Source of the DNA: a virus
Virus record (IMG/VR): IMGVR_UViG_3300020724_000020
Reading direction: 5' to 3' (one strand)
DNA: 31,516 nt
Part shown: one piece after another, positions 24,302 to 25,663 of the stretch
Numbering within the stretch: position 1 is the first letter of the stretch
How the letters are laid out: each line of letters starts with the position of its first letter
Notes under the pieces: generated by a model
Told to the model about the DNA's origin: nothing
Seen by the model: only the letters and a program-made list of their open reading frames with translations
The model's database searches: none
Made by a program: the position numbers and the translations under genes

Positions 24302-24592
24302 ATGAAATACTTAAAAACATATGAAACTCATTCAATAGAAGATGAACTAAATATTATTAATAAAATACTTAACCGTTACTATGAAAAAAATGAAAAAGGT
24401 AAAGATACAGGCTTCAGCATTCGTATGAACTATAATGAAAGACAATTATTGATGAAAGACGGTCTTATTCAAGTAGATACAGGTGACGAAGGCGGCGGAA
24501 TCATATTCCAATACTATATTAGAAAAAAAGACCGCCAAACTATAATAGATAAACTAGAACTAATAAGAGCAGTAGAAAAATATAATATGTAA
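24302..24592 (+). CDS. Fam-A member (MKYLKTYETH ... RAVEKYNM)
   Basis: ORF track. Confidence 0.6.
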   Translation: MKYLKTYETHSIEDELNIINKILNRYYEKNEKGKDTGFSIRMNYNERQLLMKDGLIQVDTGDEGGGIIFQYYIRKKDRQTIIDKLELIRAVEKYNM

Positions 24593-24602
24593 TGAAATTG
24601 TA

Positions 24603-24906
24603 ATGAAATACCTTAAACTCTTTTGAAACAAAATCTTTTAAAAAATTCATCGTATGTGAAGGTGAATTATACTCTCAATTTCAAATATGGGAAATTATTC
24701 GTTTTAATAAAACAGTAAACCAATTTACTCTGATAAAAAAATATGAAACAGGTGATGATTATAATATTATAGAAAATACAAAACCAAAAGAATATAACTT
24801 TAACAAAATAACAACATATAACGATGTCATCTTCAAAACTAATAACCTAGAAGAAGCATTAGAACATATGGAAATGAAAATAAATGCAATAAAATATAAT
24901 CTGTAG
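24603..24906 (+). pseudogene. Fam-A member with frameshift in T4 run after codon 7 (MKYLKLF-stop; remainder ETKSFKKFIVCEGELY...INAIKYNL in +1 frame)
   Basis: manual translation; preceded by duplicated junction TAATGAAAT-TG-TAATGAAATA. Confidence 0.5.
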
Positions 24907-24912
24907 CCACAA

Positions 24913-25215
24913 ATGAACCACCTTAAACTATTCGAATACTTCGTAAATAATATTGACTATGTTAAAATTTCAACAGAAGCATTACAATATATGGAACTCT
25001 ACCCAATAGTTAGAATAATAGGTAAAAAAACATATAATAATAGAGGAATTCCTATAAGACCAAAAGGTACTCTTTATAGAGTAGAAGGTATAGATAGCAA
25101 AACAAATAAAATGAGAATACTAAATATGTCAGACTTCGAACTAAGCGATAAAGCATCACAAGAAGAAATAGAAAAATATGAATTTATGAAATCAACAATA
25201 AAATATAATCTGTAA
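24913..25215 (+). CDS. Fam-A member (MNHLKLFEYF ... KSTIKYNL)
   Basis: ORF track. Confidence 0.65.
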   Translation: MNHLKLFEYFVNNIDYVKISTEALQYMELYPIVRIIGKKTYNNRGIPIRPKGTLYRVEGIDSKTNKMRILNMSDFELSDKASQEEIEKYEFMKSTIKYNL

Positions 25216-25248
25216 GTAATTACAGAAATCGTAAAAAACGATTAATCT

Positions 25249-25575
25249 ATGAAATATATAAAACTATACGAATACTCCAATGTAGACTATAAACCAGGTG
25301 ATTATGTTAGAATATCCCTGTTCTTTATACCATCACTAAATATGAAATGGGAAAAAATACATACTACCAATATAGTAGAATCCATATATAAAAGTTATGC
25401 TAAAATACTAACTATTAAACAACATACAAATAACTATGGCGTAGAATTTATAAATTCAAAAACATATGAAATACTAAACTGCTGGTTAGATGAAAAAGAT
25501 ATACTAAGACCTCTAACACCAGAAGAAATTGATGAATTCGAAGCAATGCTATCAGCAAATAAATATAACCTATGA
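25249..25575 (+). CDS. Fam-A member (MKYIKLYEYS ... LSANKYNL)
   Basis: ORF track. Confidence 0.65.
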   Translation: MKYIKLYEYSNVDYKPGDYVRISLFFIPSLNMKWEKIHTTNIVESIYKSYAKILTIKQHTNNYGVEFINSKTYEILNCWLDEKDILRPLTPEEIDEFEAMLSANKYNL

Positions 25576-25663
25576 AATATATTAAAATATACGAATCTAA
25601 CGATACAAGTTATTTGAAAAAAATTTAGAAGCTAAAATAATAGCATCAAAATATAATCTGTAA
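25572..25663 (+). other. empty Fam-A cassette: head MKYIKIYESNDTSYLKKI-stop then out-of-frame tail EAKIIASKYNL-stop, no cargo
   Basis: manual translation of 92 nt between full members. Confidence 0.5.

Follow-up and report, generated by a model that had tools for sequence, protein, structure and literature searches.

Probable debris of gene loss in a viral array of small proteins with shared terminal peptides

The DNA considered here is a 31,516-nt stretch of the IMG/VR virus record IMGVR_UViG_3300020724_000020 (hereafter the window; 26 per cent GC, plus strand read 5′ to 3′). It contains more than 25 small plus-strand open reading frames (ORFs) that start with MK(Y/H)(I/L)Kx(F/Y)E, termed here the head, and end with KYNL-stop, termed the tail, on either side of a variable body or cargo. 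One of several operon-like runs of these genes, array 3 at 24302–26342, holds a head and a tail that lack a cargo, a duplicated junction between two members and, directly after that junction, a frameshifted member. There is good reason to think that array 3 is losing members through ordinary errors of replication and recombination, and that these features are very probably the debris. The array reads as follows.

24302–24592 (+): first member, intact in the ORF list, 96 amino acids, head MKYLKTYE and tail KYNM-stop
24588–24609 (+): perfect 11-nt tandem repeat, TGTAATGAAAT followed directly by TGTAATGAAAT, spanning the stop/start overlap TAATG (Tandem Repeats Finder: period 11, 2.0 copies, 100 per cent)
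24592–24603 (+): MKL-stop mini-ORF produced by the duplication, read by translation, sharing one base with the upstream stop and one with the downstream start
24603–24626 (+): head of the frameshifted member, translated as MKYLKLF-stop (TGA at 24624–24626), with one extra T in the run 24621–24624
24607–24906 (+): body and tail of that member in the +1 frame, open for 100 codons on translation and ending MEMKINAIKYNL-stop
24913–25215 (+): intact member, 100 amino acids, SH3-like barrel and C-terminal helix
25209–25243 (+): twin hairpin spacer, the first stem of which (TCTGTAA-GTAA-TTACAGA) holds the last Leu codon and the stop
25249–25575 (+): intact member, 108 amino acids, its stop overlapping the start of the head stub (ATGA)
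25572–25628 (+): head stub, MKYIKIYESNDTSYLKKI-stop
25601–25663 (+): tail stub, RYKLFEKNLEAKIIASKYNL-stop, in the -1 (+2) frame, its translation ending EAKIIASKYNL-stop
25610–25623 (+): putative deletion junction TTATTTGAAAAAAA with the A7 run 25617–25623, where homologies to head and tail meet in different frames (alignments to 6146–6240 and 7945–8125 of the related contig L067)
25664–25723 (+): spacer with two copies of ATTAAAGACGCAT as a direct repeat at 25677–25706 (alignment to L067 8028–8111)
25724–26017 (+): intact BRCT-like member, 97 amino acids
26019–26342 (+): last intact member, 107 amino acids, followed by a twin hairpin at 26334–26366

The gene at 25249–25575 is present on contigs of six different samples from three assembly sources (ENA ERZ27271870, ERZ27271831, ERZ27271927 and ERZ27271907; Logan SRR4029407; JGI 3300021136), and over 24250–26400 all six contigs, which come from different samples and assemblers, are 100 per cent identical. 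Because six independent assemblies agree fully across this interval, the lesions are not assembly artefacts, and assembly or sequencing error was ruled out as their source.

The state of each member can be judged against L067, a 15.6-kb contig reached by profile search via P0007, whose own array, of 20 members, is collinear with array 3 (70–79 per cent nucleotide identity). In each of seven pairs of genes the partner is the best blastp match, and 13 additional L067 members are interspersed among them. The pairs, window member first, are these.

24302 member and L067 2169–2489: both intact (blastp 52 per cent over a 106-column alignment, 108 bits; global 57 per cent over 96 aligned residues)
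frameshifted member 24603–24906 and L067 3452: L067 copy intact, 59 per cent identity
24913 member and L067 4074: both intact
25249 member and L067 4965–5288: both intact, 70 per cent identity
head stub 25572–25628 and L067 6166: 15 of 16 residues the same
25724 member and L067 8112–8423: 86 per cent identity
26019 member and L067 8426–8761: both intact

The 92 nt at 25572–25663 had been described in the original prediction as a head followed out of frame by a tail, with the cargo deleted, and the sequence reads exactly so: the head (25572–25595) and the tail (25649–25663) match the family patterns with 0 mismatches. The peptide MKYIKIYESNDTSYLK at the N-terminus of the stub opens, with a single difference, the gene found at the syntenic position in L067 (6166–6462), an intact protein of 98 amino acids (MKYIKTYESNDTSYLKNYKKY...LILTANKYNL), and full-length versions also occur in L072 (96 amino acids) and L074 (99 amino acids). 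A cargo in the otherwise empty slot, which the prediction had proposed to look for in population variants, is therefore found in relatives. It had also been reasoned that retention of the element in relatives as a tiny ORF or a regulatory RNA would argue against a scar. The truncated form is confined to the six clonal copies and occurs in none of the relatives, and the stub RNA shows no structure (fold z -0.9 and 0.0), so that a regulatory RNA was discarded for lack of a fold signal and the element is best described as a deletion scar rather than a conserved tiny gene.

The ends of the missing segment can be placed with some precision. On the head side, the DNA matches L067 at ∼90 per cent identity from the tail of the previous gene as far as ...AGTTATTTGAA, after which the two diverge; the identity stops at TTATTTGAA, homology on the tail side and in the spacer restarts from the A-run, and the join sits at this microhomology of TTATTTGAA and the A-run (TTATTTGAA against GAARAA). 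Both breakpoints are intragenic, one after codon ∼16 and the other ∼13–18 codons short of the stop; neither coincides with a cassette boundary, and the join is out of frame. Among the L067 tails, the best nucleotide match to the tail stub is that of the 7716–8027 member (23 of 39 nt upstream of the consensus), which is directly followed by a spacer, TCTATTAAAGACGCATAT...AATATG, orthologous to 25664–25723. A deletion would have joined codon ∼16–17 of the ortholog of L067 6166–6462, out of frame, to the final ∼13–18 codons of that same gene or of a member farther downstream. Since the nucleotide similarity of the tail and the spacer that follows it both point to the ortholog of L067 7716–8027, the most economical reading of the sequence would be a single deletion of ∼1.75 kb (in L067 coordinates), which would remove five whole and two partial members; the alternative is a 0.2-kb internal deletion together with separate losses.

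The duplication at the first junction of the array had been placed at 24587–24605 and described as two 9-nt copies around a TG. The duplication itself is real, but these coordinates and this register were slightly off, and the repeat is the 11-nt unit listed above, present twice without interruption; the abortive MKL-stop mini-ORF is as predicted. The single-copy form of this junction would be AATATGTAATGAAATACC. Identical short copies lying head to tail, with no other rearrangement, are the expected signature of slipped-strand mispairing, and such an event would leave both flanking frames untouched while adding MKL-stop. The duplication is tolerated because the stop codon and the start codon at the junction both lie within the repeated unit.

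What had been overlooked is that the 'next member' after the duplicated junction is itself broken. Its body frame (24607–24906) has no ATG, GTG or TTG start before 24868 and is absent from the ORF list. Removal of one T from 24621–24624 restores a member of 100 amino acids, and L067 reads CTATTTGAA (T3) at the same place, where its gene is intact. The repaired protein retains its 59 per cent identity with the intact protein of L067 3452–3766 and has 45 per cent with another intact ortholog in L069 (6–323), the best blastp score being 110 bits. From its sequence, the member at 24603–24906 appears to be a recent pseudogene, which the gain of one extra T in the T-run would have created.

Taken together, a short tandem duplication, an added homopolymer base and a deletion between short repeats are what slipped-strand mispairing and microhomology joining classically produce, and the 'illegitimate recombination' originally invoked suits the deletion remnant and the duplication alike. 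Assemblies of the same phage differ in similar ways. An 18-nt tandem-duplication indel at 28440 gives L001 and L002 an extra copy (TGAAACAATACCATACAA) inside the gene at 28123–28659, and a 4-nt indel at 29866 leaves L001 without TACA inside the ORF at 29649–29906. These differences are of the same kinds as the lesions in array 3 and point to slippage in this phage. Decay is recurrent, in the window as well as in other phages, where 9 of 258 heads belong to short ORFs that lack a tail. We infer that the scars themselves serve no function.

There are further incomplete members. An ankyrin-like member at 9374–9869 is frameshifted, with a head and ankyrin repeats to 9661 and ...VTKKYNL-stop in another frame. 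Two orphan tails stand without head or body, one (TDAKKYNL-stop, 17578–17601) directly after a response-regulator gene and the other (5231–5281) as a 16-residue ORF ending MEKYNL-stop. In L028, and identically in L054 and L065, there are head-and-tail stubs at 6883–6931 (49 nt) and 7614–7646 (32 nt), and in each the tail lies in the -1 frame: the former reads MKHETLKK and then LSKKYNL-stop across an A9 run, the latter MKQT-stop and NKYNL-stop. The same contig has a tail-only ORF of 25 amino acids at 6451–6528 and a 7-nt tandem repeat (ATGAAAC twice) at the head of the first stub.

The shared termini define a large family. Against shuffled sequence, a 15-nt tail pattern is matched 23 times in the window, always on the plus strand (0.15 expected), and a 24-nt head pattern 12 times (0 expected). 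The junction pattern matches 59 stretches of IMG/VR contigs, mostly of 21–31 per cent GC and on contigs of up to 330 kb, and 183 ORFs of these stretches have both head and tail, with a median length of 114 and a minimum of 40 amino acids, the latter an in-frame head-and-tail mini-member in L008. With a profile of the commonest type, 2,876 representatives of 50 per cent identity clusters are recovered at E ≤ 1e-3, of which 1,358 also pass E ≤ 1e-10; among the best 150 matches listed, nearly all are ∼100–125 amino acids long and aligned end to end, and ten matches that were looked up are metagenomic only and carry, where a real name is given, 'hypothetical protein'. The cargos differ, including SH3-like, BRCT-like and ankyrin-like bodies and one body of 456 amino acids. 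Large ORFs near the arrays encode T4-type gp32, RNase H-like 5′-3′ exonucleases, TnpB, inteins and PPK2, and in L018, L038 and L061 the arrays have gp32 homologs only a few kb away.

What is conserved in the head and the tail is the peptide. In a set of 209 members (the IMG/VR loci, the window and relatives fetched later), synonymous codon usage in head and tail is that of the gene bodies (AAA 92 per cent, TAT 89 per cent, AAT 87 per cent, TTA 61 per cent), and the tail Leu codon follows the codon usage of each genome. Because synonymous usage does not differ from that of the bodies, the motifs have been selected as peptides and not as a DNA core site. The tail is always in frame and is fixed in position relative to its own stop codon, not to the next start. 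A role for the tail as a -10 promoter (TATAAT) or another DNA or RNA signal was rejected, given that synonymous sites are free and sigma-70-type promoter sites are not enriched (14 found against 21.8 expected). Stop and next start overlap as ATGA in 63 per cent of the junctions in this set, which implies that the members are expressed from polycistronic messages, with coupled translation, and that the host is a bacterium. The head is predicted to be disordered in a structure model, and a literature search for the KYNL motif returned nothing relevant. Some members depart from the usual layout: in L070 (494–1291) the head is internal, a BRCT-like member being fused to an upstream domain (265 amino acids, ...NNLQKIQLFEDFEDH...); the BRCT-like gene at L067 8112–8423 has its start shifted upstream (MKKLKKLNHIQLFEDF); and P0040, of 243 amino acids, has two stretches that match the family profile and may be two members fused in tandem.

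Some observations weigh against reading array 3 as one that sheds its members. Differences of whole cassettes could reflect gain in L067 as readily as loss here. The six phage copies are clonal across the region, and no intact-gene variant is found within the population. By blastp the parent of the tail stub is ambiguous, so that the deletion may measure ∼0.2 kb or ∼1.75 kb. The body of the frameshifted member is still free of stops for 100 codons, and CUC UUU UGA (24618–24626) permits +1 re-pairing of tRNA-Phe, which makes a low-level rescue possible. Finally, the frames of the stub are joined by a -1 shift across the A7 run, and the two stubs of the unrelated L028 lineage are also -1, one of them across A9. 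These last points lead to a different account, in which the lesions are functional recoding or relay elements: MKL-stop would serve as a relay, UUU-UGA as a programmed +1 site and the A7 run as a -1 slippage site yielding a 30-residue peptide, MKYIKIYESNDTSYLKKNLEAKIIASKYNL. The slippery sequences that would permit such re-pairing are indeed present, at 24618–24626 and in A7 (25617–25623), and UUU UGA would allow a perfect P-site match in the open downstream frame; the MKL-stop ORF keeps the exact TAATG overlap on both sides, all three head-and-tail stubs (one here and two in L028) are -1 related, two of them across A7 or A9, and a mini-member consisting of head and tail in frame does exist in L008. 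However, the orthologs in L067, L069, L072 and L074 are ordinary in-frame, full-length genes in which the sites are not conserved, direct reading of the 21 bases that precede the +1 site shows no Shine–Dalgarno-like stimulator, the sequence after the A-run shows no structure (z -0.9), and a -1 relation in three of three stubs has p = 1/8 by chance where A-runs are common, at 26 per cent GC. Recoding consequently strikes us as improbable. We hold a similarly low opinion of the possibility that the MKL junction is a minimal empty cassette (head ATGAAA and tail TTGTAA) left by deletion of three members, although L067 has three extra members (2496–3455) exactly here and an MKL-stop mini-ORF also lies beside a stub in L028. 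Our initial reading of MKL-stop was as such a minimal scar, and it was demoted once the 22 nt proved to be a perfect 11-nt repeat in two copies, for which a single slippage suffices and which a deletion join would yield only by chance; the example in L028 is likewise a tandem repeat, of 7 nt, and the orthologous left junction in L067 differs (TAGCCACAAATG) and would need a further event.

The original prediction also raised site-specific recombination at cassette boundaries, with a core site to be defined by aligning the junctions and a recombinase linked to similar arrays. In such an integron-like system a recombinase would act at the core site of the junction, and the empty cassette and the duplication would be its abortive products. 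Relatives do differ by whole members, junction patches have been relocated between unrelated cargos, a resolvase-domain ORF is present in the window at 3434–3754(-), and TnpB-type genes are common on family-carrying contigs (6 of 130 large ORFs). Against this, the breakpoints of the deletion are intragenic and the reading frames do not match across them, nucleotide conservation in head and tail does not go beyond what the peptides require, and 63 per cent of junctions have no intergenic DNA at all. A Pfam scan of 46 non-family ORFs from the window (10 and 36; PHROGs was scanned too) yielded neither a tyrosine integrase nor Cas1, the sole recombinase signal being the resolvase-domain ORF. This is a fragment of 106 amino acids covering profile positions 34–138 of 145 (PF00239 at 2e-7; 'transposase' in PHROG), ∼20 kb from array 3 and directly upstream of a 431-residue ORF without a family match, roughly in the place where TnpB would sit in an IS607-type element; the region 2152–3910(-) is possibly a decayed element of that type. 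We consider a dedicated site-specific system very improbable, and neither its core site nor its recombinase was borne out.

A perfect 64-nt patch, running from the last codons of a tail across the ATGA junction to head codon 17 of the following gene, occurs at 9357–9421 and again at 9849–9913, where it leads into two successive members with unrelated bodies, one ankyrin-like and the other SH3-like. Similarly, a 27-nt junction with spacer TAGCCACAA is 96 per cent identical at non-orthologous positions of the window and L067. We infer that general homologous recombination on such tail–junction–head stretches of 25–65 nt moves whole cassettes. Of the predicted cassette behaviour, then, the whole-member differences and the exchanged junction patches stand, while a dedicated recombinase is not needed, as homologous exchange and slippage explain the behaviour.

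Modular shuffling of this general kind has been described in the hyperplastic regions of T4-type phages, where it is mediated by promoter early stem-loops (PeSLs) (Arbiol et al. 2010, PMC2839356; Comeau et al. 2014, PMC4122927). The agent proposed in those studies is the phage's own homologous recombination, needing <50 bp of homology, and their authors draw an analogy to integrons (PMC2839356, PMC4122927). The likeness to array 3 and its relatives is considerable: both have arrays of small non-essential ORFs in which close relatives differ by insertion, deletion and replacement of whole ORFs between short repeats, T4-type gp32 and RNase H-like genes occur on family contigs, and stem-loops follow some of the tails. 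Indels bounded by repeats and chimeric repeats between relatives, as expected of PeSLs, are seen here, with 13 whole-member differences between the window and L067. A repeated intergenic promoter and stem-loop flanking the ORFs is not, as the twin hairpins stand at few spacers only. PeSLs are intergenic modules of promoter and terminator, whereas the repeat here is mostly coding and usually overlapping (ATGA in 63 per cent), sigma-70-type promoters are not enriched (14 against 21.8 expected, as above), and no T4 hallmark gene lies in the window. The scars themselves are also unlike the products of PeSLs, being a microhomology deletion and slippage rather than repeat-to-repeat exchange.

Integrons offer a second comparison. 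Integron gene cassettes use attC sites and IntI. Like them, the members of array 3 are promoterless, stand in tandem, vary in content and have boundaries that can be recognised, but here there is no integrase and no attC-like folded site, the boundaries encode peptides, and the breakpoints lie off the boundaries. A parallel to the losses is the 'ORFanage' of cyanophage S-PM2, for which spontaneous deletion of non-essential small genes from the variable region of a T4-like phage is described (PMC4503421). As portrayed there, that was one large deletion seen in culture, whereas the losses here are deduced from comparison with a relative ∼70–79 per cent identical, and recognisable stubs were left behind.

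For the peptides, the nearest analogy is with the T4 internal proteins, in which a short conserved N-terminal capsid targeting sequence is carried by diverse small proteins encoded at a variable locus (PMC3012670). By this analogy head and tail may be a signal of the capsid targeting type for packaging, the conserved head being found on SH3-like, BRCT-like and ankyrin-like cargos. The present family differs in its invariant C-terminal KYNL and in having dozens of members per genome fragment against about three. The prohead-protease site that ends a targeting peptide of ∼10 residues has the motif Leu/Ile-x-Glu. Most heads have Thr or Lys, and a minority Leu, three positions ahead of the conserved Glu, where that motif has Leu or Ile.

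Several further features of array 3 and its surroundings deserve mention. The twin hairpin at 25209–25243 folds at -11.2 kcal/mol (z -5.0), and its paralogous copy at 26334–26366 (z -3.9) shows compensatory changes relative to it, TAA to TGA and TTA to TCA. A stem-loop is also found at 9279–9297; all of these lie directly 3′ of certain tails, and the loop of the first stem is GTAA. The twin hairpins may be terminators or processing sites at the ends of sub-arrays. The spacer at 25664–25723 is orthologous to the one upstream of the BRCT-like member in L067, and its ATTAAAGACGCAT motif is present in three L067 spacers. The motif ATTAAAGACG(C/A) is repeated in spacers (25677–25706; L067 5790–5802, 7349–7380 and 8027–8100) ∼20–45 nt before the ATG of members that have an upstream region of their own and is kept in both phages, which makes it a candidate for a promoter or regulator site. 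The BRCT-like member at 25724–26017 matches phrog_3869 (C-terminus of NAD-dependent ligase) at 2.6e-7 and Pfam BRCT at 0.019, the latter below the cut-off of that profile, and apart from this cargo Pfam and PHROGs gave chance-level matches only. A supposed third empty cassette at 26415–26463 was dropped, the L067 alignment showing a conserved CCGAT...ATCGG hairpin region with no head or tail. Beyond it, a non-coding block at 26505–26625 (L067 8935–9050) is ∼90 per cent identical between the phages, against ∼73 per cent in the flanking genes, and holds AAAARTGGAG three times and then GGGAACCTTGGATGGCTGACA; this block had no Rfam match and no convincing consensus fold.

The source is probably a large AT-rich phage of the T4 type, though without a hallmark gene in the window. 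No megablast or tblastn match to a known phage was found in INPHARED, the window has no tRNA and no Rfam match, an IMG/VR protein search with two flanking genes gave no close relatives, and a metagenome scan with the BRCT-like member returned distant, non-syntenic loci only. The window also encodes accessory domains unusual for a phage, namely a major-vault-protein shoulder domain (18515–19801), a papain-family peptidase (3951–4715), a cREC-REC domain (13788–14222(-)), a receiver domain (17208–17564) and a CYTH domain (23605–24015). A giant-virus origin, raised by the vault-shoulder, papain and ankyrin domains and by contigs of up to 330 kb, was judged unlikely because stop and start overlap in 63 per cent of the junctions of these same-strand arrays and because gp32 homologs are linked to them.

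The scars in array 3 are ordinary in themselves, but a syntenic relative dates them, and this makes them useful for following the turnover of the array, in which microhomology deletion, homopolymer slippage and short tandem duplication would remove members while junction exchange moves whole ones. The family and its shuffling on coding repeats are more interesting than the scars. Because the motifs have been selected as peptides, the lead to follow is a function at the protein level, such as targeting, processing or docking, rather than a recombinase. It is conceivable, if doubtful, that head and tail form an address label in two parts, which might direct packaging and injection, processing, or docking to a single machine of the phage or host, and which thousands of small proteins would carry in a clade of large AT-rich phages from bogs and lakes. 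Were this so, the arrays would amount to an effector arsenal comparable to the T4 internal proteins and far larger, and the label, as the one extended stretch of nucleotide homology that neighbours share, would also serve cassette shuffling as its substrate. If, in addition, -1 slippage took place on the A-runs, stubs such as 25572–25663 would yield label-only peptides that could compete for the same machine.

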